The notes below the pieces were generated by a model. That model did not search any database and had not been told where the DNA came from. It worked only from the letters and a program-made list of their open reading frames with translations. From an uncultured Calditrichota bacterium (GTDB taxonomy: Bacteria; Calditrichota; Calditrichia; JAJRVZ01), in the NCBI GenBank assembly GCA_964489835.1, contig CAZBBC010000005.1, positions 26,123 through 90,122 of the forward strand: DNA of 64,000 bases, written 5' to 3'. Shown here in pieces: positions 5,230 to 59,740 of this stretch; the first letter of the stretch is position 1; each line of letters starts with the position of its first letter. Position numbers and translations under genes: made by a program.

Positions 5230-5311
5230 TATTATCCTCCGGTATCAGGTAAACATAACAAATTGTACACTGAGGAGTAATTCTATCATAGTTTTCCTTT
5301 TCTACCGCTTT

Positions 5312-8300
5312 CTATTCTTTAGTTTTATGAAATAGTACACGGGCAGTAATTTCCTGCTTTTTTAGAGTGGTGCTTTCCCAGCTTACTTTCAAATCCTTAG
5401 ATCCTCCCATTTGAAAGTATTTTACTTTAATCGGATATTCTCCCGCTTTTAAGGCAATTTTTCCGGATTTTTCAATCGTGCCATGTCCGCCATCATTATC
5501 GATCAATTCCTCTTCATTCAGAAATAATTTGCTTCCATCATTCGATGCGAGGTAAAAAATATAGATATCATCCTCCGGAATAAGGATATATCCGTGATAA
5601 ATGTAACCAAATTCATTGACACCATTACGCGGTTTCATTTCAAACTGCGTCATGAGCCCGGACTTTACAGGCTTGGCTTTATCAAGATCGGCAACTGACC
5701 GATAGGAACCTTCAAAATAGTCGCACTGGAGTCCGACTTCAATGTTACCCGGATCTATCACCCTGGCATATTCTACCTTTTTAAAATTTTCCGTCACAAC
5801 AAAGCTTGTGGCCTGATTATTAGCAAAGGCGCGCATTTTAAGCGTTATCGGATTATTTAGCGGAAATGGTCTGGTATATAATTTCGATTGCAGTGTCGGT
5901 TCGGTCCCATCAACCGTATAACGAATACGTGCTCCTTTTGTATCACAAGCCAGAACGACTTTAGTTGTACCAACAAAGTATGTATTATTAGAGCTCACAT
6001 AAGGCGTAGGAACTGTTGAATTACCACCGAAACATCGAACAGACCCATCTTCCAAAGTAACAATAATCTTTCCATCACGACTTATCGCAAGTCCCCAGGG
6101 TACCGGCGAATATTCCAAAGGTTGCGACCAAAGCACTCTTCCATTACTGAGATCAAGAACAACGATATCTGTTTTTTCAGCGATAACGACAGCATTTTTA
6201 CAAGCTGCCAGGGCAACACTTCCCTCACAATTGTATTCCCAGTAGGGCTCGGAGGGAATATCGAGATTTGCCCAGATTGGAGCGAGATATCCTGTAAAAC
6301 TCTGTCCTCTAACACTATTATTTAAAACATTTTTATCAATAGGCGGATAGCATAAAACTTTTTTCTGGTTCACCCAAACGATATCCCGTTTGCCGACAGA
6401 TGTGTGCAACAATTTATTTTTAACCGTTTCGTCGTATACGGTATGTTTGGGGTGACTGTAAAATGGTTTACCGCTGGCGACGACATGATCTCCAACGAGA
6501 TAGAGTTCCCAACCGCGCGGGCTGAGTGATTCACAATTTTTAAGGAGTTCAGGATCGTTAAGGCACCGGCCATCGGTAACATCATAAACAGCTGGTGAGA
6601 GTGATGTACCACTTGCCATATAAAGTCTGTCTTTTTTAAGAAGTAAATGTCCCATGACGCTTGCCCCTGTGCGGGCCTCGGGATATAAATGGCCCGAGGT
6701 ATTGTTCTGCCATTTTATTTTCCCGGTTGCCGCGTCAAGTGCATAGACATGTGTTCCGTCATAATTAACGATTCCGGCAGCTGCATAGGCAATACCATCC
6801 TGAACCCGTACACCGCTGGCTACGGGCCAGGTCGAAATCAAAGATCCATAAACGGGAATCTTACGATCTATAGGAGCGGCCCGGAATCGCCAGATCATAT
6901 CACCTGTCCGTGCTTCCAGACAATATACATACCCATCCCCTGATCCAATCAGCAACCGGCCATTCCATACAGTTGGTGCCAGACGGACAGCGCCTCCGGT
7001 ATAGGCTTGCCAAACAAGCTGGCCGCTTATAACATCCACTGCCCGTACGACACCGTCAGAGCTTCCATAAAATACAAGGCCATCAACAGTAACCGGGGCT
7101 GTCAGTACCGTATAATGTTCATGTCCGAAAACATTTGTGGTCACAATATAGCCATCGTATTCCGGGAATCGCCAGAGCTCGTATCCCTTTTTAGAAATCA
7201 AGGCATTGCTCGTTACCCGGCATTGATTGTCCTTGCGAAAAGAGGGCCAATCGGCAGGAGTTTCGATCATGTTATTGATCATGGATAAATCGGCAGTGCC
7301 TTTTTCCAGCCGCTCTTCCTCTTTTGCCTTTATATTAAATCCAAAGTCACCGGCCGGACCCAGACAGTTAAAACCATAAATTGATAGTTGACAATCACAG
7401 ACAAATGGCCAAAAATAGAGCTGTCCATTGGCAATGGTGACACCGTCGAAACACGGCGGTCGCATTGGTGATATCCATTGAGGCATATAACTAGCAAGAT
7501 CGAAGCGAACCGTACCACCATTGGCTCTGAAAAATATAGCATCAGCGGTAGCACTGGGTCGGGTACAGGCCCTGCGGCCTGTGGGCAAATCTGCCAGGAT
7601 CTCACCGGTGAGAGGATCAAATTTTTTACTTACATTATTCCGCCAGGGACCACTGATACCAAATAAACCATCGTCTCGCAGAACAATTTGAAAATTATTG
7701 TAAGAATTTTTCCACAAAACACTACCGTCTTCAGTTGAAACGGCGAGTAGTTTGTCAATTTGTGGTCCTGCAAAATACAAGGCGTCGTCCGAACATAAAA
7801 TATAATTTCTGGTTCGCCAATTGGTTTCCCAGCTCTGCCGGGGAAGATATTCACCGAAGGCTTCAAATAGCTCCGGTGCGTTTTCTCTAGTTTTTCTCCA
7901 GATAATTTTACCGGATTTTGCGTTAAGGCAGGTCAAAAATGATCCGAATCGAAACAGGTAGATCCGACCGTTCTTCAAACCGGTACCGCGGCTGTCGATG
8001 GCTTCATCTTCCTGGTAATGCCACAGAACCTTGCCGGTTATGGGATTCATAGCCAGCATGTTCTTACCGAATCCCCATGAATGTTCAGATTGATTGAAGC
8101 CTTTTGATATGTCTGTCCAGGGCCACCCATGTTTTTGACGGCGCCATCGCATCACCGGATCCTTTTGCTCCTGATCTCCGATAAGCGCATAGAGAACATC
8201 GTCTTCCATTCCCATCCATTTCCAGAAAGTTCCTCCGGCAACTTCTAATGGGGGCTTGATCTCACCCTTTAGTTGACCCGTTTCTGTATCGATCAGCTTA

Positions 8301-13677: not shown

Positions 13678-13906
13678 TGAATTTTTTTTAAGGGTAACTT
13701 TTTCCGGACTAAAATTAATTACTCATCCGATATTTTTGCCTGTCGAATCTAAATAATTCACTAACCTGAATTATTCACCACGAAGATCATCCTTCGAGGT
13801 TTATGCTTTTATAGCCAAAAACTTTGTTGTTTTAACAAAATTTTTACAAACTGAATATATTCATTTAACGCAGAGACCGCAGAGATTTTTTTATAATACA
13901 TTTTTT

Positions 13907-14008
13907 AATTCGTGAAAATTCGTGTCAGTCTGCGCCTGATCCGGCTTCGACGGATAATTCGTGGACTTCTTTTTTGGATTGCAGCAATAGGCTGCGGCAT
14001 GAATAGAC
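13907..14008 (-). repeat. gene-end structured repeat, family A copy 1 (about 97% identical to 21437-21536)
   Basis: aattcgtgtcagtctgcgcctgatccggcttcgacggataattcgtggacttcttttttggattgcagcaataggctgcggcatgaatag; 3 mismatches in 91 nt against the reverse complement of 21437-21527; lies 88 nt 3' of the sialidase-like gene in the same relative orientation as the other copies. Confidence 0.8.
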
Positions 14009-14095
14009 CAGGCTAATTACCCAACCGTAATAAATCTAAAATAATATTTAATACAAACCAATCATTAATATAGGTCATTCGATTTATTGATGAGT

Positions 14096-17607: not shown

Positions 17608-17746
17608 AACCACGAAGCACACGAAGATATTATTATTGATTTTATAGAAAAAATGCAATACTAAAATTTGAACAGGAATTCCTTTATAGATTTACAATAA
17701 ATATTTTTTTTATGCTTTCGTGCTCTTCGTGCGCCTCGTGGTGATT
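17608..17746. repeat. heptamer inverted-repeat element (CACGAAG arms, 90-bp AT-rich core)
   Basis: left aaccacgaagcacacgaag; right ctttcgtgctcttcgtgcgcctcgtggtgatt (RC carries cacgagg/cacgaag/cacgaaa). Confidence 0.7.
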
Positions 17747-18760: not shown

Positions 18761-18944
18761 CTTATTCTTCTCTTAGTAATTCGAAATCATTGTTTTTTAA
18801 TATCATAGCACAGCCCAAGGCTGCAAATAAAGAACAAATAATCCGTGGATAAAAGTTTTTGACTGTAAAACAATAATGGTACAATATAATTTAAAAATAG
18901 CAGTTTTAAAATAGTATCATATGTTACGGTATCTGTTTATTTTT

Positions 18945-19000
18945 TGACAGGATAATCCCGACTGGGTCGGGATCCAAAAAACGGACAGGATTTACAGGAT
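18945..19000 (+). repeat. GACAGGAT-flanked hairpin motif, copy 1 (copy 2 at 51016-51074)
   Basis: ttttttgacaggataatcccgactgggtcgggatccaaaaaacggacaggat; 8-bp stem atcccgac/gtcgggat; about 88% identical to 51016-51074. Confidence 0.7.
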
Positions 19001-19347: not shown

Positions 19348-21435
19348 ATGGCCATCTTAAGCAAAGAAAAACAGCTTAAGAAAGAGCTGTCGTTATTCAA
19401 CATTTATACCATTGCCACTGGAGCCACCATTGCCTCTGGTTTCTTTCTGTTACCGGGTTTGGCCTATGCCCAGGCTGGTCCAGCCATGGTGCTTAGCTAT
19501 CTGATAGCGGCAATCCCGGTTATTCCGGCCTTGTTCAGCACATCTGAACTTTCGACAGCAATGCCGCGTGCCGGCGGCATTTATTTTTTCCTGGACCGCA
19601 GTATGGGGCCGCTAATGGGCACCATTGGTGGTATAGGAACCTGGCTGGCTCTGATACTGAAAACAGCTTTTGCATTGGTGGGTATTGGTGCCTATATGCG
19701 TTTGTTCTTACCTCAAATTCCAATGTTACCACTGGCTGCTTTTTTCGCCATTCTTTTTGGTATCGTCAATCTTTTAGGTGTAAAAAAAGCCGGTATCTTT
19801 CAGGGTATATTTGTTATAGGCCTGTTGCTGCTTCTGGGCCTATTTTCAGGAATCGGTTTAACATATTTGAATTTCCAGAATTTCAATGGTTTTTTTGACA
19901 AGGGATTCAATTCAATATTTGCTACCGCCGGTCTTGTTTATGTCAGTTATATCGGGCTTTCTAAGATCGCCAGTGTTTCTGAAGAAGTTAAAAATCCGGA
20001 TAAAACGATACCCTTGGCAATGTTTCTGGCACTGGGCACGGCGATTTTGGTATATACTATTGGTACTTTGGTTATGATCGAAGTGATACCGGCCGAAAAA
20101 TTAACCAACGATCTGACACCGGTAGCCTCCGCGGCCGAAATTATGATAGGAGAGTGGGGCGCGATCTTGATGACCACCGCTGCAATCTTGGCTTTTTTAT
20201 CAGTAGCAAATGCAGGAATTCTCAGTTGTTCACGCTATCCGCTGGCGATGAGCCGTGACCATCTAATGCCCCGTTTTTTGCGCTCTTTCAGTAAACAAAA
20301 AACGCCAAAATACGCTATCCTGATCACCGTAATATTTATTTTACTGATGCTCTTACTCCTTGATCCCGCAAAGATTGCTAAACTGGCCGGTGCCTTCCAG
20401 TTACTTCTTTTTGCACTGCTTTCACTTGCTGTTATTGTCATGAGGGAAAGCCGATTAGATTCTTATGATCCCGGATTCCGTTCCCCCTTATATCCATGGA
20501 TGCAAATTTTTGGGATGATTGCTCCCTGTTGGCTGATCATTGAAATGGGCTGGTTTCCGTCTATTTTTGCACTGGCATTGGTTGGATTGGGCACATTTTG
20601 GTATTTTTATTATGGAAAGAAAAGGGTCGTCAGGGACGGTGCCATTTACCATATTTTTGCCCGTCTTGGTCAGCGACAGTTCGAAGGTCTTGATATTGAA
20701 TTGAGAAGCATTTTAAAAGAAAAGGGTTTGCGTGATAAGGATCCGTTTGATGCTGTCGTTGCCAGTTCTGTATTTATTGATATTAATGAAAAAACTTCTT
20801 TTGAAGAAATCGTAAAAAAGGCCTCCTCAAGTTTATCAAAAAAATTTCACTGCGATGCCAAACTATTAGAAAGATCATTTATGGAGGGTACCCAAGTAGG
20901 GGCAACTCCGGTTTCACACGGTACCGCACTCCCGCACCTTCGTATTCAGGGAATGCCGCATTCTGAAATGATCATGGTTCGCACACAGATCGGCATCACG
21001 GTTGATTTTGATACAAATCTTTTAGGGGAGCAGGATGCGGATAATCCCATATATGCATTATTCTTTTTAGCCAGCCCGGAAGATAATCCGGGGCAGCATT
21101 TACGTATCCTGGCCCAGATTGCCAGCCATGTGGATAATGAAAATTTTATTAATCAATGGCTTGATGCCAATAATGAACAGGAATTAAAAGAGCTGCTTCT
21201 GCGGGAGGACCGGTATATCTCTTTGCAGCTGACAGCTGGTACAACAACCGAAACACTGATTAACTGTGAGATTCGAAACATTGAGCTGCCTGTGGGAAGT
21301 CTGATTGCGATCATTCACAGAAGGGGAGAAATGATAATTCCGAGAGGACAAACGGTTCTGCATGAGCATGACCGTTTAACCATTATCGGTTATCCCAAGG
21401 GTATTCAGGAATTGTACGATAAGTATTTAACCTGA
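19348..21435 (+). CDS. APC-superfamily amino-acid permease fused to PTS EIIA(Ntr/Fru-type) and TrkA_C regulatory domains
   Basis: 695 aa; roughly 12 TM permease domain (aa 1-430); EIIA-2 motif SHGTALPHLRIQG with conserved His; C-terminal TrkA_C-like GSLIAIIHRRGEMIIPRGQTVLHEHDRLTIIG. Confidence 0.8.
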   Translation: MAILSKEKQLKKELSLFNIYTIATGATIASGFFLLPGLAYAQAGPAMVLSYLIAAIPVIPALFSTSELSTAMPRAGGIYFFLDRSMGPLMGTIGGIGTWLALILKTAFALVGIGAYMRLFLPQIPMLPLAAFFAILFGIVNLLGVKKAGIFQGIFVIGLLLLLGLFSGIGLTYLNFQNFNGFFDKGFNSIFATAGLVYVSYIGLSKIASVSEEVKNPDKTIPLAMFLALGTAILVYTIGTLVMIEVIPAEKLTNDLTPVASAAEIMIGEWGAILMTTAAILAFLSVANAGILSCSRYPLAMSRDHLMPRFLRSFSKQKTPKYAILITVIFILLMLLLLDPAKIAKLAGAFQLLLFALLSLAVIVMRESRLDSYDPGFRSPLYPWMQIFGMIAPCWLIIEMGWFPSIFALALVGLGTFWYFYYGKKRVVRDGAIYHIFARLGQRQFEGLDIELRSILKEKGLRDKDPFDAVVASSVFIDINEKTSFEEIVKKASSSLSKKFHCDAKLLERSFMEGTQVGATPVSHGTALPHLRIQGMPHSEMIMVRTQIGITVDFDTNLLGEQDADNPIYALFFLASPEDNPGQHLRILAQIASHVDNENFINQWLDANNEQELKELLLREDRYISLQLTAGTTTETLINCEIRNIELPVGSLIAIIHRRGEMIIPRGQTVLHEHDRLTIIGYPKGIQELYDKYLT

Positions 21436-21436
21436 C

Positions 21437-21536
21437 CTATTCATACCGCAGCGTATTGCTGCAATCCAAAAAAGAAGTCCACGGATTATCCGTCGAAGCC
21501 GGATCAGGCGCAGACTGACACGAATTAACACGGATT
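21437..21536 (+). repeat. gene-end structured repeat, family A copy 2
   Basis: Starts 2 nt after the permease stop codon; reverse complement of copy 1. Confidence 0.8.
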
Positions 21537-21613
21537 AAAACTAAAATAATTATTAATAAATAATAACATCGCTGCGCCGCTGCGAGAAATGAAGAATTCG
21601 AGTACCAAAAATT

Positions 21614-21672
21614 TTGCTAAAAAACAAAGTTTTTGGAATAATAGCATAGCGTAGCGAGATGGGGTGGGGCAG
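21614..21672. repeat. repeat module M (ttgctaaaaaacaaagtttttggaataatagcatag) plus partial GC-rich hairpin-family fragment
   Basis: Module M about 92% identical to 50920-50958; agcgtagcgagatggggtggg is the RC of cccaccccRtctcgctacgct found at 47761, 55040 and 59668. Confidence 0.65.
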
Positions 21673-27040: not shown

Positions 27041-27639
27041 ATTTAATTATCAGGGTAATGTTAAATAATATCCATAAGTATTTAATATTTGTTTTTATTG
27101 AATATTGAACAAGGATTAACAATTAACGAATTTTGAAGTAAAGTTGATTTAAAAATTTTTTGCTCATTTTTCCTGGAATACCATCGAAGGCTAACAAAGA
27201 AAAACCGATTTTTATTGTAATTCGAATTATAATTAATAAATTAAGCATATTCCTTTCATACCTGCCCAGATTTTTACTGTAACTAAATTATTTAGTAAAC
27301 TTCCGCTTTCGAGAATGATGACCAGCAGGTGATCGTATTTTTTAATACCCGGCATAAACAATTCTAGTATCAATATAAATCTGCCAATTGAATATTTAAT
27401 TGTAATACTATTTTGTACGCTAACCACGAAAAATATATGGGGAAAATGGTGGGGATAAGAAGAGATTATTAAAGATAAATGTCATGGGGCATAATGTGGA
27501 AAAATCGTAAAGGAAGAAAATATTTTATATATGGAATTATCTCAGCATAAAATTCTTTTGTCTTTTTTCTTTTGTCTTGGATTTGTTTGCAGCCTTGATC
27601 TGTGTTATGAATAGGTTAGGTTAATTAATTGAGGAGGAT

Positions 27640-30413: not shown

Positions 30414-31238
30414 CTAATTACCAGCCAGGGTCACGGAAATCCAAATCTCCTCACCATCCATATCGGGCATGGAACGATTGCCACCTCTCATGCCACCGCC
30501 TCTCATTCCACCACCAGGCATACCAGCACCGGGACGGCCTCTGTCCATACCGCCACCGCGCATACCGGTACCTCTTCTCTCGGCCATTTGTTCCTCTATT
30601 TCTTTCTTTTTTTCTTCATTCAATCCGGAAATTTCCAAACCGATCATTATTTCATTCGCAGCGGATATTTTTAAATAACCGATAGATCCATTTGTCGGCG
30701 TGAGGGGTATACTAAATTCGAAACAATACAAACCGTCCTGATAACCGGCACTGGCATAGAAACCGGCTGTTTCTTTAATCGAAATACCGGTTAAAGAATC
30801 ATTTTTTGCCAGTGTGAATTGCCCCTTTGGTTCAGGGACTCGTGGGCGACTATTTCCACCACGATCTTTATCCGACTCTCCGTTAAACCTCCGGGACCTG
30901 ACCAGATCTTTTAGATTTTCATCTTTGTAGTGGATACCGAGGGTTTTTTCTTCCTGATCCTCAACATTAATCCAAACCGTAAAACCGCGCCTGGCAAACG
31001 TTTGAGCCAGTCTCTGATCATTGAAACGAACCATAAAGTCGATGGAGCGATCATCATTTACAACACCATAAACCAGATTCATATCTTCCTGATATTGCAA
31101 GGGAAGGCCGTCCCAGTCTTTACCGTTTCCATCGATGACTACCGGTTGCGTTTTCCATGTGCTTTCTATTTTTTCCCCGCAACTGACAAGTGCTGACATG
31201 ACCAAAACCCAGATTATATTTTTTTTAAATGCACCCAT
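30414..31238 (-). CDS. hypothetical lipoprotein with Met/Gly/Arg-rich C-terminal tail
   Basis: Lipobox LVSC; tail GTGMRGGGMDRGRPGAGMPGGGMRGGGMRGGNRSMPDMDG; start ambiguous (31259 or 31238). Confidence 0.55.
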   Translation of the reverse strand: MGAFKKNIIWVLVMSALVSCGEKIESTWKTQPVVIDGNGKDWDGLPLQYQEDMNLVYGVVNDDRSIDFMVRFNDQRLAQTFARRGFTVWINVEDQEEKTLGIHYKDENLKDLVRSRRFNGESDKDRGGNSRPRVPEPKGQFTLAKNDSLTGISIKETAGFYASAGYQDGLYCFEFSIPLTPTNGSIGYLKISAANEIMIGLEISGLNEEKKKEIEEQMAERRGTGMRGGGMDRGRPGAGMPGGGMRGGGMRGGNRSMPDMDGEEIWISVTLAGN

Positions 31239-34108: not shown

Positions 34109-34203
34109 TGGGTCCTTGTTTATCGGTTAGACAATGTGAAATTAATAATATTCCAGGAATTATAAAATTTTTGTATATTATGCTATTATGACTAATAGCT
34201 TAT

Positions 34204-34283
34204 ATCCACGGATTACACGGATTAAAACTAAAATAATAATAATTTTTAGATGAAATCCGTGCTAATCCGTGTAATCCGTGGAC
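34204..34283. repeat. heptamer inverted-repeat element (CACGGAT arms)
   Basis: atccacggattacacggatt ... aatccgtgctaatccgtgtaatccgtggac; followed at 34297-34330 by a family-A fragment tttgcagcagtgggctgtggtatgaatagatc. Confidence 0.7.
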
Positions 34284-34343
34284 AAATTCTTTTATGTTTG
34301 CAGCAGTGGGCTGTGGTATGAATAGATCAAATTAAAAAGCAGA

Positions 34344-37910: not shown

Positions 37911-38000
37911 AACCACCACGCCAGTAGGCGGATCCGCCCACTGGCGGGCTCAGAGTGATCCTCTGTGGGCTCTGCGTGCCCGCCTACTGGCGTGGTGGTT
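37911..38000 (-). terminator. intercistronic hairpin (21-bp perfect stem, 48-nt loop) with U-tract between ccoNO and ccoQ; candidate attenuator/partial terminator
   Basis: aaccaccacgccagtaggcgg (37911-37931) and ccgcctactggcgtggtggtt (37980-38000) are perfect reverse complements; on the minus strand the stem is followed by AUUUUUUAUAAAAUU; the stem begins at the ccoNO stop codon. Confidence 0.65.
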
Positions 38001-42834: not shown

Positions 42835-42953
42835 CTTCGAAGAACACGAAGCACACGAAGTTTTTAATTATTAATATAATTTTTGTGTTAACTTCGATTT
42901 TGATAAAAAAATAGTCAATATAATATCTTTGTGACCTTCGTGGACTTCGTGGT
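42835..42953. repeat. heptamer inverted-repeat element (CACGAAG arms)
   Basis: cttcgaagaacacgaagcacacgaag ... ctttgtgaccttcgtggacttcgtggt. Confidence 0.7.
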
Positions 42954-44044: not shown

Positions 44045-44160
44045 TATAGACTGGAGACATAGGTAACACTATATTTCCTTTTTACTTGGACAAAAACTCT
44101 CCCCCTATCCCCCTCTTTTGAAAAGAGAGGGGGAATTTTATTCATGAAACGTAATGAAAA
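44045..44160 (+). repeat. intergenic tandem-duplicated element, copy 1 (hairpin ccccctct/agaggggg + T-tract + atgaaacgtaatgaaaatgcaag)
   Basis: About 70-nt core near-identical to 44425-44510. Confidence 0.7.
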
Positions 44161-44394
44161 TGCAAGATTTCTTCTAAATGCAATAAAGAAAAGAATAGTA
44201 TTTGCAGTAAATATTAATCGGATTCTGCTCCCCTTCTCTTCTCAAGAGAAGGGGCTGGGGGATGAGTTTTTTAAATATAAAAAGAATAAACTTTATTTAA
44301 CCGGACACTAATGATATAAAATACTTAATAAGTAGGGATAATCAAAAAATAATAACTACCCCTCCATTGTTGTTTTGACCAGAGAGATGGATAA

Positions 44395-44525
44395 AAGGAT
44401 CCGGGGACATAGTTTACACTTTTTGTATCTTCTACTTGGATATAAACTCTCCCCCTGACCCCCTCTCTTGAAAAGAGAGGGGGAATTTTATTCATGAAAC
44501 GTAATGAAAATGCAAGAATTCTTTA
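44395..44525 (+). repeat. intergenic tandem-duplicated element, copy 2
   Basis: acttggatataaactctccccctgaccccctctcttgaaaagagagggggaattttattcatgaaacgtaatgaaaatgcaagaattc. Confidence 0.7.
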
Positions 44526-47760: not shown

Positions 47761-47836
47761 ACCCACCCCGTCTCGCTACGCTCGACACCCCTCCCTATCC
47801 GGCAAAGCCGGACAGAGAGGGGATGGGTGATGGTCA
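47761..47836 (+). repeat. GC-rich nested-hairpin element, copy 1
   Basis: acccaccccgtctcgctacgctcgacacccctccctatccggcaaagccggacagagaggggatgggtg. Confidence 0.75.
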
Positions 47837-48034
47837 CTTATGAATTATTTGTTTGCAGCCCTGGGCCGCGTTATAAATAGTTCAGGTTAATAATTCGGGC
47901 AAAAATATTCTTAAAATAAATTAATTTACATTTAAAAACAAATTGAATTAAATTTTGAAAACGATAAAAAATAAATATCGGAAAACAATCTTTACAATTT
48001 CTGCATCGTTAAGGATATAATCAGTCTTGTTATT

Positions 48035-50661: not shown

Positions 50662-50666
50662 AGAAA

Positions 50667-50744
50667 TCAGCTAATTAGCCTGATCTATTCATAGCGCAGC
50701 GATGCTGCAAACAAAAAAAAATAGTCCACGGATTCCACGGATTT
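50667..50744 (+). repeat. gene-end structured repeat, family A copy 3 (diverged), starts 6 nt after the GT22-like stop
   Basis: gctaattagcctgatctattcatagcgcagcgatgctgcaaacaaaaaaaaatagtccacggattccacggatt. Confidence 0.65.
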
Positions 50745-50919
50745 TATTTAAAAATTATTATTATTTTATTTTTTAATCCGTGCAAATCAGTTTCCGCCAT
50801 GTTGTATATCCCGTTTCACGGGATAGGAGGATCCGCTGTGGCGGATAATCTGCGTCATCCGTGTTCTATTAATATCGCTGCGGCGCTGTGAGAAATTAAT
50901 TATTCCGCTTTGTACAAAT

Positions 50920-50958: not shown

Positions 50959-51015
50959 ACGAGCCCATGGCTATAAAAAAGAAATAAATCAATCACTCCC
51001 GATGGAGGAATTTTT

Positions 51016-51074
51016 TAGACAAGATAATCCCGACAAAGTCGGGATCCAAAAAACGGACAGGATGGCAGGATAAA
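51016..51074 (+). repeat. GACAGGAT-flanked hairpin motif, copy 2
   Basis: ttttttagacaagataatcccgacaaagtcgggatccaaaaaacggacaggat. Confidence 0.7.
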
Positions 51075-51190: not shown

Positions 51191-51440
51191 AATAATCGTA
51201 TCCTCGTAGAGGATAAATTATTGTAATAAAATATGTATAAACCAATACCACATCCTCGTAGAGGATGCATTATTGGTGGTATTTGTAGATTTAGTGAAAA
51301 ATATTTAATTGAATATTTTGATTAAATTCCTCAAAACATGTTGACGGTTCTATAATATCCTCAATTATAAATCCTCTACGAGGATTATATATTTTTGGGT
51401 TACGCTTTATTTTCTACAATAATGAAACCTCTACGAGGTT
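51191..51440. promoter_or_regulatory. array of four ATCCTC-GTA-GAGGAT-type palindromes upstream of the M1 aminopeptidase gene
   Basis: Sites 51200-51214, 51252-51266 (atcctcgtagaggat), 51371-51385 (atcctctacgaggat), 51426-51440 (aacctctacgaggtt); sites 1-2 sit in longer hairpins (aataat.../...attatt; ccaata.../...tattgg). Confidence 0.4.
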
Positions 51441-51551
51441 AATAATCTAATTTATTCAAATGGTATAAAAGGGAAACTTACACTTATCTAAAGAACATAA
51501 TATTTATGTTATAAACTATAAAGGCATCCATATTTATAAATCAATCGTTTT

Positions 51552-55039: not shown

Positions 55040-55110
55040 ACCCACCCCGTCTCGCTACGCTCGACGCCCCTCCCTGTCAGGCTTTGCCAGACAGGGAGGG
55101 GTGACCTTTA
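55040..55110 (+). repeat. GC-rich nested-hairpin element, copy 2
   Basis: gacccaccccgtctcgctacgctcgacgcccctccctgtcaggctttgccagacagggaggggtgac; 14 nt after the xth stop. Confidence 0.75.
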
Positions 55111-55132
55111 GGTCGGGAAGGATCAAATATAA

Positions 55133-58769: not shown

Positions 58770-58836
58770 CCGCTAACCTGGATAATTTATTTCTCGCGAG
58801 TGATTATTCAAACATTTAACTTCCAGTGGAGATTAT

Positions 58837-59559: not shown

Positions 59560-59667
59560 AAACTTACCTTTGATTTTTGATAATTCTTTTGCTAAAATCT
59601 CAATCTTTATATTAATTACCATATTAGCATTACGCAGCCTATGGCTGCAAACAAAATAAATATTTCT

Positions 59668-59740
59668 AACCCTCCCCCAGCCCCTCCCTGCTTGCAGGGA
59701 GGGGTGTCGACCCGCCTCAGGCGGGGAGACGGGGTGGGTA
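59668..59740 (-). repeat. GC-rich nested-hairpin element, copy 3 (inverted)
   Basis: cccctccctgcttgcagggagggg ... gagacggggtgggt (RC of acccaccccgtctc). Confidence 0.7.

Follow-up and report, generated by a model that had tools for sequence, protein, structure and literature searches.

A modular GC-rich repeat in intergenic spacers

The stretch of DNA analysed here, which we call the window, comprises 64,000 nucleotides of an uncultured Calditrichota bacterium (contig CAZBBC010000005.1, positions 26,123 to 90,122), and it holds three full copies and one head fragment of a GC-rich palindromic repeat, hereafter the element. The genes around them are ordinary chromosomal ones, for YtxH, glycosyltransferases, an exonuclease III-like protein, an ABC transporter, an SDR protein and a phosphorylase. 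The copies and their neighbours are the following:

47761-47834, plus strand: copy 1, with head ACCCACCCC (47761-47769), GTCTC, hairpin A GCTACGC (47775-47781), TCGAC-A, pyrimidine arm CCCCTCCCT (47788-47796), insert ATCCGGCAAAGCCGGAC, purine arm AGAGAGGGG (47814-47822) and a degenerate tail ATG-GGTGATGGT; between the divergent YtxH-like (start 47724, minus) and Glyco_transf_9 (48035, plus) genes.
55040-55123, plus strand: copy 2, a symmetric form, with head, GCTACGC, TCGAC-G, CCCCTCCCT (55067-55075), insert GTCAGGCTTTGCCAGAC, AGGGAGGGG (55093-55101), T, a second small hairpin GACCTTTAGGTC (55103-55114) and tail GGGAAGGAT (55115-55123); between the convergent ends of an exonuclease III-like gene (55026) and an ABC transporter gene (55133).
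59669-59739, minus strand: copy 3, the canonical form, ACCCACCCC-GTCTC-CCCGCCTGAGGCGGG-TCGAC-A-CCCCTCCCT-GCAAGC-AGGGAGGGG-CTG-GGGGAGGGT; between the co-directional SDR gene (end 59559) and a glucan phosphorylase-like gene (start 59797).
21648-21669, minus strand: head fragment CCCCACCCCATCTCGCTACGCT, between convergent genes, broken right behind the GCTACGC(T) module and fused there to another repeat module (TATGCTATTATTCCAAAAACTTTG...).

The initial annotation had placed three full copies and one fragment of a nested-hairpin family at these sites, and pattern searches bear it out with matches well above those in shuffled sequence: three against 0.00 for CCCACCCCGTCTCGCTACGCT with at most 3 mismatches, five against 0.68 for CCCACCCCGTCTC with at most 2 mismatches, and two against 0.00 for CCCCTCCCT-N4-30-AGGGAGGGG. 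It was also right that the inner loop differs in every copy and is palindromic in each, as the three inserts demonstrate. Other details had to be amended. The sequence described as shared by all runs through copies 1 and 2, but copy 3 lacks GCTACGC and has in common only ACCCACCCCGTCTC and TCGAC around its own hairpin CCCGCCTGAGGCGGG; the cccctccct...agggagggg stem holds overall, with one mismatch from the consensus in the right arm of copy 1 (AGAGAGGGG); and copy 2, which had been ended at 55110, continues through T-GACCTTTAGGTC-GGGAAGGAT to 55123. The proposed position between convergent or divergent genes applies to copy 1 (divergent), copy 2 and the fragment (both convergent), but not to the co-directional surroundings of copy 3. 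Nor are the copies the only strongly GC-rich tracts in the window, as had been thought, since others lie at 37912-38000 and 30508-30585 (at least 68% GC).

Alignment of about 90 copies resolved a fixed frame with exchangeable parts. The 5' part of the frame consists of the head ACCCACCCC, GTCTC, a swappable hairpin A, TCGAC-N and the pyrimidine arm CCCCTCCCT, and the 3' part of a variable insert B, the purine arm AGGGAGGGG, CTG and the mirror tail GGGGAGGGT. Hairpin A occurs as GCTACGC with point variants, TCCCGCAGGTGCGGGA, CCCGCCTGAGGCGGG or CCCCCCGAnnnnGTCGGGGG, and insert B as GCAAGC, GCAAGCTTGC, ATCCGGCAAAGCCGGAY or long nested palindromes. In the symmetric forms (copy 2, and L082 and L038 3765-3820 among the related loci, which carry L numbers) a second small hairpin stands ahead of a GGGGTGGGT-type tail. 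Flank preference is loose, with ..AAT(G/A) ahead of the head and (C/T/A)AG behind the tail in about 80 copies. Head and canonical tail keep an A/A mismatch, yet each of them fits the A:T pair of the central stem, so that a third-strand role explains the two ends better than end-to-end pairing does.

Three-block layout, spread and turnover

When the tail is laid against the central stem as the third strand of a purine-motif triplex, with G·G:C, A·A:T and T·A:T as the allowed triads, 34 of 52 copies show allowed triads at all 9 positions and 40 of 52 at 8 or more, and 39 of the latter 40 have a second loop of 3 nt; among 5000 random 20-mers drawn from these loci, 16 reached at least 8 triads. 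The opposite strand reaches 9/9 triads with the head complement GGGGTGGGT, which lies behind the hairpin A linker. Within the window, copies 1 and 2 have 7/9 triads on the tail side (in copy 2 with tail GGGAAGGAT) and 9/9 on the head side, while copy 3 has 9/9 on both strands, its opposite strand using GGGGTGGGT after the linker.

By this layout the element is a predicted member of the BoxC/PIT/TM class of GC-rich intrastrand-triplex repeats (Bergler 1992; Hoyne and Maher 2000, 2002; Holder et al. 2015, PMC4666352). The TMECO family of that class follows the pattern CCCTCNCCC-N3-6-GGGNGAGGG-N3-GGGNGAGGG and counts 23 copies in MG1655 and 3610 across 262 proteobacterial genomes (PMC4666352). 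The E. coli TM sequence forms triplexes in vitro, and TM repeats are intergenic, show no strand bias and occur in inverted pairs; their loci are rearranged in excess between strains and are rearrangement hot spots in E. coli, and the 2015 authors state that no mobility genes were ever seen near them (PMC4666352). We tried the strict TMECO consensus and it did not fit the blocks found here (CCCCTCCCT/AGGGAGGGG/GGGGAGGGT); because these are unlike those of TMECO, we file the element in the class and not in that family. The geometry suggests that the strands of the element may form triplexes in this organism.

The initial annotation had taken similarity confined to this contig as the outcome that would speak against a repeat family, and we found the reverse: a strict pattern matched 4 loci, all in one genome (a Calditrichia metagenome-assembled genome, MAG), among 185,579 species representatives, and a slightly looser pattern matched 83 metagenome loci. 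One protein of the window was found exactly in JGI metagenome 3300031585, and the SDR protein is 97% identical to a protein on contig Calditrichia_1. Viral contigs gave 0 matches to the element pattern and hence no phage link. The core CCCACCCCGTCTCGCTnCGCTCGAC with a CCCCTC...GAGGGG hairpin is also present on contigs L015, L021, L023, L024, L053 and L058, which come from other organisms, often GC-rich, and in one of them, L053, two copies stand inverted to each other; the core motif reaches lineages far outside Calditrichia. Among 84 unique copies, 2 lie inside long open reading frames (ORFs) and 48 at contig edges, and the others with both neighbours known are tandem (14 sense and 8 antisense), convergent (6) or divergent (4). 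As to the association with gene ends and the orientation that the initial annotation proposed to examine, the copies are intergenic and without orientation bias (14 sense against 8 antisense).

The same counts bear on a function in transcripts, as a terminator, mRNA 3'-end stabiliser, small RNA or cis-regulator. Such a structured RNA would account for the strong folds on both strands (RNA structure prediction, also proposed earlier, put all three window copies far below shuffles, with z from -3.3 to -6.1 on either strand), for the several copies directly past stop codons, and for the compensatory changes in the inner stem, where 3 pairs are changed on both sides (6 cells), a state that 0 of 500 shuffles reached. 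Double-sided changes can, however, be produced by template switching in a DNA palindrome as well as by selection, and so appear compensatory without any selection on RNA. In none of the copies are the stems followed by a terminator-like T-run, and a terminator scan flags none; the Rfam 15 covariance models gave no match at the gathering score nor at E up to 1, so that no known RNA family fits the element; and copies without orientation bias also occupy divergent promoter regions, such as that of copy 1. Moreover, RNA is reported to be incapable of purine-motif triplexes, and neither promoter nor terminator activity was seen for the E. coli relatives (PMC4666352). We consider a role as RNA very improbable.

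Comparison of orthologous sites showed how quickly the element changes. The copies at L052 and L085, whose flanks are 86% identical, differ in the hairpin at insert B, the copies at L036 and L072 read GCAAGCTTGC and GCCAGCTGGC, respectively, and loci with 96% identical flanks differ in neighbouring modules and tails. The spacer of copy 3 contains the same element in L117 (a 95% relative), with hairpin A exchanged for GCTAGGC, and a head fragment only in L116 (a 97% relative), with the same break point as the window fragment at 21648-21669; L116 and L117 each also have a full copy at a site without one in the window. One further site exists in three states, being empty in L117, filled in the window with a 57-nt module (58770-58826, CCGCTAACCTGGATAATTTATTTCTCGCGAGTGATTATTCAAACATTTAACTTCCAG, between a lactamase-B-like gene and the SDR gene) and occupied by element plus module in L116. 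This module resembles D2, a module of the form TTTG-hairpin-TATGAATAGATCAGGTTAAT; 14 of 65 copies of the element have a D2 in the 210 nt that follow them downstream, compared with 1.5% of random windows. Loop B in turn receives mobile elements, namely an IS481-like element and its miniature derivative. In L072 700-900 (minus), the IS481-like transposase gene (MSQRFEFIMLALQEGINFSELCRRFDIS...), with the end TGTCCCCGAACACCTGTAACCCATGTCTCCGGTCTATACAG, lies in loop B upstream of the DUF559 gene described below; the miniature derivative with IS481-like ends is found in loop B elsewhere (L026, L003). Genomes that are 95-97% related differ by the gain, loss or truncation of entire copies, and these swaps, gains and losses at orthologous sites make the element one module in a fast-reshuffled mosaic. 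It is a DNA-level, intergenic, fast-changing and non-coding module, real and widespread in Calditrichia.

DUF559 genes between the repeats

In locus L036 two inverted half-elements, both with their central hairpin complete, enclose a 131-aa gene: the left one stops 14 nt ahead of the start codon, and the stop codon is followed after 9 nt by the right one. The gene belongs to Pfam DUF559 (PF04480, E 2.7e-26) and its L072 ortholog is arranged identically. All the DUF559 genes inspected on homolog contigs were flanked by pyrimidine-purine hairpins, the further loci being these:

L089 and L090, syntenic with L036: DUF559 gene flanked by hairpins.
L090, 7330-7728: second DUF559 gene, flanked by a second repeat type (type 2).
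L091, a genome bearing a type IX secretion system (T9SS; another FCB genome, from the Fibrobacteres-Chlorobi-Bacteroidetes group): two tandem DUF559 genes, with complete elements before, between and after them.
L095 and L096, Caldithrix abyssi and Calditrichota LG25: DUF559 amid several copies of a longer relative of the repeat.
L097-106: Saprospiraceae DUF559 gene, with a 150-nt relative of the repeat on either side.
L108, L109-111 and L112-115: further DUF559 loci, flanked by hairpins.

Within 250 nt of DUF559 genes the density of pyrimidine-purine hairpins is 2.17 per kb, compared with 0.10 per kb in the remainder of these loci; near the genes 24 were observed against 1.1 expected (22-fold, Poisson P ~6e-24). 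A profile made from window-type copies only matches the DUF559-flanking elements in five lineages (E 1e-3 to 1e-9), and in the Saprospiraceae element the conserved GCCTGAGCTAGCGAAGGC-GGGGTGAGT corresponds to the GTCGAGCGTAGCGAGAC-GGGGTGGGT of the window, with co-changing outer pairs in the small hairpin. Repeats of this family and their relatives bracket DUF559 genes in several phyla, and we found no report in the searchable literature that links DUF559 or ycjD with them. At L089 8301-8562 two half-elements surround a decayed DUF559 N-terminus, an arrangement that is a decayed intermediate between the gene-bearing unit and the solo element. Differing upstream flanks of the Saprospiraceae unit, considered as a sign of mobility, are possibly assembly chimeras at tandem arrays and were set aside as evidence. 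In the gene calls P0001, P0031, P0042, P0098, P0100, P0113 and others, the DUF559 protein has spurious Pro/Gly-rich N- or C-terminal extensions (e.g. NPPPSPPLSLQGRGAEGGES, LLAPSPNFWEKGLGMRA), which are translated flanking repeats. The repeats thus explain this annotation artefact together with the GC-rich islands in AT-rich spacers and the contig breaks at repeats.

The DUF559 protein is predicted, from its motif and its modelled structure, to be a PD-(D/E)XK nuclease with a Vsr-like, homing-endonuclease-like fold. Its alignment shows D60, E71, D73 and H77 as invariant residues (D, E-x-D, H). With an AlphaFold model of pLDDT 87.7 as query, Foldseek ranked the DUF559 structure 3HRL, the catalytic domain of I-Bth0305I (3R3P; probability 1.0, TM-score 0.75 on the target) and the nuclease domains of PvuRts1I/AbaSI (4OQ2), with TnsA weaker. 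A sequence-only search of the PDB returned 3HRL alone (E 3.5e-27), so that the nuclease relatives are visible by fold search only.

In E. coli K-12 the DUF559 gene is ycjD, which adjoins fabI (envM), the locus of the first BoxC description. The ycjD reading frame ends within a CCCTCTCCC...GAGGGGG hairpin, and CCCCTCGCCCCTCTGGGGAGAGGGTTAGGGTGAGGGG follows 167 nt downstream; this 50-nt CCCCTCGCCCCTCTGGGGAGAGGGTTAGGGTGAGGGG sequence (TM) is found at a median of 18 places per genome in 5,426 complete E. coli genomes. A C-terminus of the type ..PSPRPSP or ..SPSPQPSP terminates 72 of 112 full-length YcjD homologs (64%) and 0 of 120 control proteins, and the PSPRPSP-type tail is the translated C-rich side of TM, with the stop codon inside the repeat. 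Among the best 120 YcjD homologs, the named ones belong to Escherichia, Shigella, Enterobacter, Kluyvera, Klebsiella and relatives, with no Salmonella among them; TMECO reaches its highest numbers in Enterobacter asburiae, also occurs in E. coli and Shigella and is lacking in Salmonella (PMC4666352), a phyletic match with these best 120 homologs that we regard as no more than suggestive. Holder et al. mention ycjD merely as a neighbouring gene (PMC4666352). In K-12 (L107, NC_000913) a second copy of the last ~12 ycjD codons (ETVLENIRQGLN) lies downstream of the gene, at 5246-5365, with TM behind it; only 3378 of the 5426 complete E. coli genomes have this 120-nt segment, so that the BoxC type locus is polymorphic for its presence or absence. 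We also looked for DUF559 remnants in the E. coli TM copies and rejected the idea, because the 120-nt spacer beside ycjD occurs at most 2 times per genome and TM copies are thus generally without such remnants.

On balance we favour the reading that the window copies are probably gene-less members of a dispersed, DNA-level triplex-repeat family that is associated with DUF559 genes and has spread from gene-bearing units. The association itself is observed directly; as to its cause, the DUF559 nuclease may act on the repeats and have a role in spreading them, and the solo copies may descend from, or be spread by, the gene-bearing units. When single-stranded, during replication or under supercoiling, either strand of the element would fold into a hairpin and then into a purine-motif triplex. 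The family would be generated or propagated from gene-bearing DUF559 units, possibly by nuclease-initiated copying or conversion or, by an alternative route, through a deletion between the two central hairpins, which are self-complementary. The copies of the window would then be non-autonomous products that make intergenic regions prone to rearrangement. More tentatively, and with rather less confidence, we propose that BoxC/TM-type repeats, from Enterobacteriaceae to Calditrichota and Bacteroidota, could be non-autonomous partners or remnants of DUF559 (YcjD-like) genes. If this is true, a PD-(D/E)XK nuclease and triplex- or hairpin-forming DNA would make up a symbiosis like that of REPIN and RAYT, and the origin, patchy distribution and local instability of the repeats would be explained.

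Several observations weigh against this interpretation. The 64-kb window has no DUF559 gene, so the copies in it are solo and are linked to DUF559 by family membership only. The canonical solo form (CTG plus GGGGAGGGT tail) is not a simple deletion product of the gene-bearing unit, for which the symmetric form (copy 2, L082, L038) would be expected. No target-site duplications were seen when the flanks of about 80 copies were compared, and no clean pair of empty and filled sites was found, the spacers in L116 and L117 differing by rearranged mosaics and not by simple insertions; in addition, metagenome assemblies may be chimeric at repeats. The DUF559 loci sampled cover the YcjD group and a single clade whose members share at least 46% identity with one query. 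ViennaRNA predicts hairpins only for the element. Finally, the E. coli relatives show no promoter or terminator activity and no effect on replication in vivo (Hoyne and Maher via PMC4666352), so that the element may have no cellular function at all.

The proximity to DUF559 would be incidental if the element were instead a DNA site useful to the host, bound by a nucleoid protein or topoisomerase, pausing replication or folding as a G-quadruplex, and if genes and repeats both accumulated in rearrangement-prone spacers. This would fit the tail AGGGAGGGGCTGGGGGAGGG, a canonical four-run G-quadruplex motif seen in the sequence, the conservation of the core across lineages, including the GC-rich outliers L015, L024, L053 and L058, and the rearrangement hot spots at TM loci in E. 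coli (PMC4666352). It is nevertheless unlikely in our view. Copy number and presence vary strongly among close relatives (also in PMC4666352), which argues against an essential chromosomal role, and the flanks of DUF559 genes are too regular, with both sides occupied, an invariant spacing in one orthologous group, 64% of YcjD homologs having their stop codon within the repeat, and the 22-fold enrichment.

Neighbouring modules and comparison with known systems

The element is regularly joined to other repeats. D2 has the structure TTTGTTT-hairpin(GCAGCC..GGCTGC)-GGTATGAATAGATCAGGTTAAT, with a hairpin that is swappable in related loci (GCGCCTTTGCGC, TCCCGATACATCGGGA), and in the window it occurs as follows:

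47847-47891, plus strand: D2 module (TTTGTTTGCAGCC..GGCCGCGTTATAAATAGTTCAGGTTAAT), just downstream of copy 1.
59628-59659, minus strand: hairpin part of a D2 module, just downstream of copy 3 in element orientation.
13973-14017, 27581-27625 and 34292-34336, plus strand: further D2 copies.
21426-21472, 50665-50700 and 18803-18831, minus strand: further D2 copies.

In some loci a ribosome-binding site and ATG come after D2. As a sigma-70 promoter, its spacing fits one variant (TTGTTT-17-TATGAA) and not others, and the 3' motif faces the 3' ends of convergent genes in 4 of the 6 best-matching window copies. D2 may be a promoter-like module, the end of a miniature inverted-repeat transposable element (MITE) or something else.

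The possible MITE end raises the question of whether the GC-rich hairpin is itself a MITE, or the core of a larger one with D2-type ends (TTAACCTGATCTATTCAT ... ATGAATAGATCAGGTTAA), that is, an internally deleted insertion sequence (IS) with terminal inverted repeats that is moved by a DDE transposase encoded elsewhere. Head and tail are indeed near-complementary, some loci have the reverse-complement D2 motif upstream and the D2 motif downstream, the 57-nt D2-like module is present or absent among close relatives, and many copies lie at contig ends, as expected for mobile repeats. The reverse-complement motif, however, stands upstream in 4 of 80 copies only, the conserved A/A mismatch between head and tail would be odd for terminal inverted repeats, and about 80 copies lack target-site duplications. 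No transposase with these ends was seen, and the sole IS found (IS481-like, L072) has other ends and is inserted in the loop. A MITE origin thus seems improbable.

A second group of repeats in the window, triplex-type like the element, corresponds to the type 2 repeat of L090:

44097-44134, minus strand: type 2 triplex-type repeat CTCTCCCCCTA plus TCCCCCTCTTTTGAAAAGAGAGGGGGA, with the purine-motif order on the minus strand.
44230-44266, plus strand: type 2 repeat CCCCTTCTCTTCTCAAGAGAAGGGG-CT-GGGGGATGAG.
44447-44483, minus strand: type 2 repeat CTCTCCCCCTGA plus CCCCCTCTCTTGAAAAGAGAGGGGG, part of a 121-nt direct repeat.

The repeats at 44230-44266 and 44447-44483 reproduce the pair that brackets the DUF559 gene in L090 (7330-7728), with no gene between them here. 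The direct repeat (44053-44173 and 44403-44523; 87% identity, 350 nt apart, in an 800-nt spacer) ends each time in a type 2 repeat, with the third, oppositely oriented one in between, and the layout of 44053-44523 resembles an emptied DUF559 unit.

Other spacers of the window are likewise composite. A 118-nt inverted repeat (13903-14020 and 21423-21540; 92% complementary, arms 7.4 kb apart) is made of TTCGTG repeats, TCAGTCTGCGCCTGATCCGGCTTCGACGGATA and D2, so that whole intergenic spacers are built of shared modules. Motifs of 8-9 nt (CACGAAG / CTTCGTG and CACGGATTA / TAATCCGTG) recur in tandem and as inverted pairs at 2000-2064, 17609-17742, 42843-42953, 34193-34294 and 50714-50794; they flank AT-rich cores in many spacers and adjoin the GC-rich element in related loci. 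A 52-nt repeat (18940-18991 and 51012-51063, 90% identity) consists of a hairpin ATCCCGAC..GTCGGGAT and then CCAAAAAACGGACAGGAT, and its minus-strand reading at 51046-51026 was flagged as terminator-like. The intergenic tract at 37912-38000 is a long GC-rich palindrome of a different family (CCACCACGCCAGTAGGCGGATCCGCCCACTGGCGGGC ... GCCCGCCTACTGGCGTGGTGG, GTAG, then a short palindrome) that looks like a dimer of repetitive extragenic palindromic (REP) sequences, and in L003 and L004 loop B of the element has taken up a closely similar sequence. At 51199-51444, at least 5 small hairpins (AATCCTCTACGAGGATT / ATCCTCGTAGAGGAT) with GTAG/CTAC loops alternate in orientation, in the manner of bacterial interspersed mosaic elements (BIMEs).

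GC-rich palindromic modules that are replaced inside conserved hairpin frames, likewise in AT-rich surroundings, are familiar from the small dispersed repeats and nested MITEs of cyanobacteria and from the mobile GC clusters of yeast mitochondria; their associated proteins differ or none has been assigned, and the likeness to the element is one of description only.

The REP/BIME-like character given to the element in the initial annotation stands as far as description goes, the copies being interspersed, intergenic and palindromic and lying in mosaics with other modules as BIMEs do. As an explanation, a classical REP or REPIN system would have the palindromes act as single-stranded hairpins mobilised in trans by a single-copy Y1 transposase (RAYT). 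The insertion of other mobile elements in the loops, known also for REPs, speaks for it, as does a variant of hairpin A that reads GCGTAGC on the reverse strand and contains GTAG. In REPs, by definition, a single 8-13 bp stem adjoins a GTAG or CGTC tag that is unpaired (PMC3733652), and in a membership test that used a single 5-13 bp stem with a short loop such strings were present only inside the element, with no unpaired tag beside a single stem. The copies inspected by eye or with Pfam had no transposase beside them, no systematic Y1 scan of the loci having been made; the gene that the repeats bracket is a PD-(D/E)XK nuclease; and the mirror layout of three blocks is foreign to REPs. The REP reading as a mechanism is in our view improbable. 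A REP-like palindrome of Caldithrix abyssi (AACCGTTnnAACGGTT) that we compared is unrelated to the element. With REP/BIME and REPIN-RAYT systems (Stern 1984; Bertels and Rainey 2011; Di Nocera 2013, PMC3733652) the element nonetheless shares short intergenic palindromes in many copies and mosaics, the use as targets for IS insertion, and the REPtron-like arrangement of a gene between inverted copies with most copies solo; it differs by having no GTAG/CGTC tag architecture and a DUF559 nuclease in place of a Y1 HUH transposase.

Free-standing Vsr-like (EDxHD) homing endonucleases such as I-Bth0305I (PDB 3R3P) resemble the DUF559 proteins in the fold of the catalytic domain and in being encoded by small stand-alone genes in several copies, at times in tandem arrays. 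The target of I-Bth0305I itself is protein-coding, in an intron or intein context, whereas the DUF559 genes, putative nucleases known from sequence and fold, lie in intergenic spacers between structured repeats.

The BoxC/PIT/TM repeats are the closest parallel. Both they and the element have three consecutive 9-nt blocks, the first loop being short and the second 3 nt long, are GC-rich, multi-copy and intergenic without bias of strand or gene class, form inverted pairs at times, and occupy loci that are rearranged among close relatives, with no transposase seen beside the copies inspected by eye or with Pfam in the case of the element; the E. coli representative also stands beside a DUF559 gene. 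The element differs in its blocks (CCCCTCCCT/AGGGAGGGG/GGGGAGGGT against CCCTCNCCC/GGGNGAGGG/GGGNGAGGG in TMECO) and in its host, a Calditrichia lineage, while TMECO was reported from Proteobacteria. It has an extra 5' part, the head ACCCACCCC with the swappable hairpin between GTCTC and TCGAC, through which the other strand gains a third block of its own; its first loop can carry long nested palindromes and other mobile elements; and it is regularly joined to other repeat modules, e.g. D2. The class has been known in E. coli since 1992, and its triplexes and unstable loci were shown in 2015, with no function, origin or mobilising activity found so far. The window element carries it into a distant phylum with a richer modular anatomy, and the consistent DUF559 neighbour, which in E. 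coli is YcjD, turns an old descriptive puzzle into a question that can be tested in E. coli.

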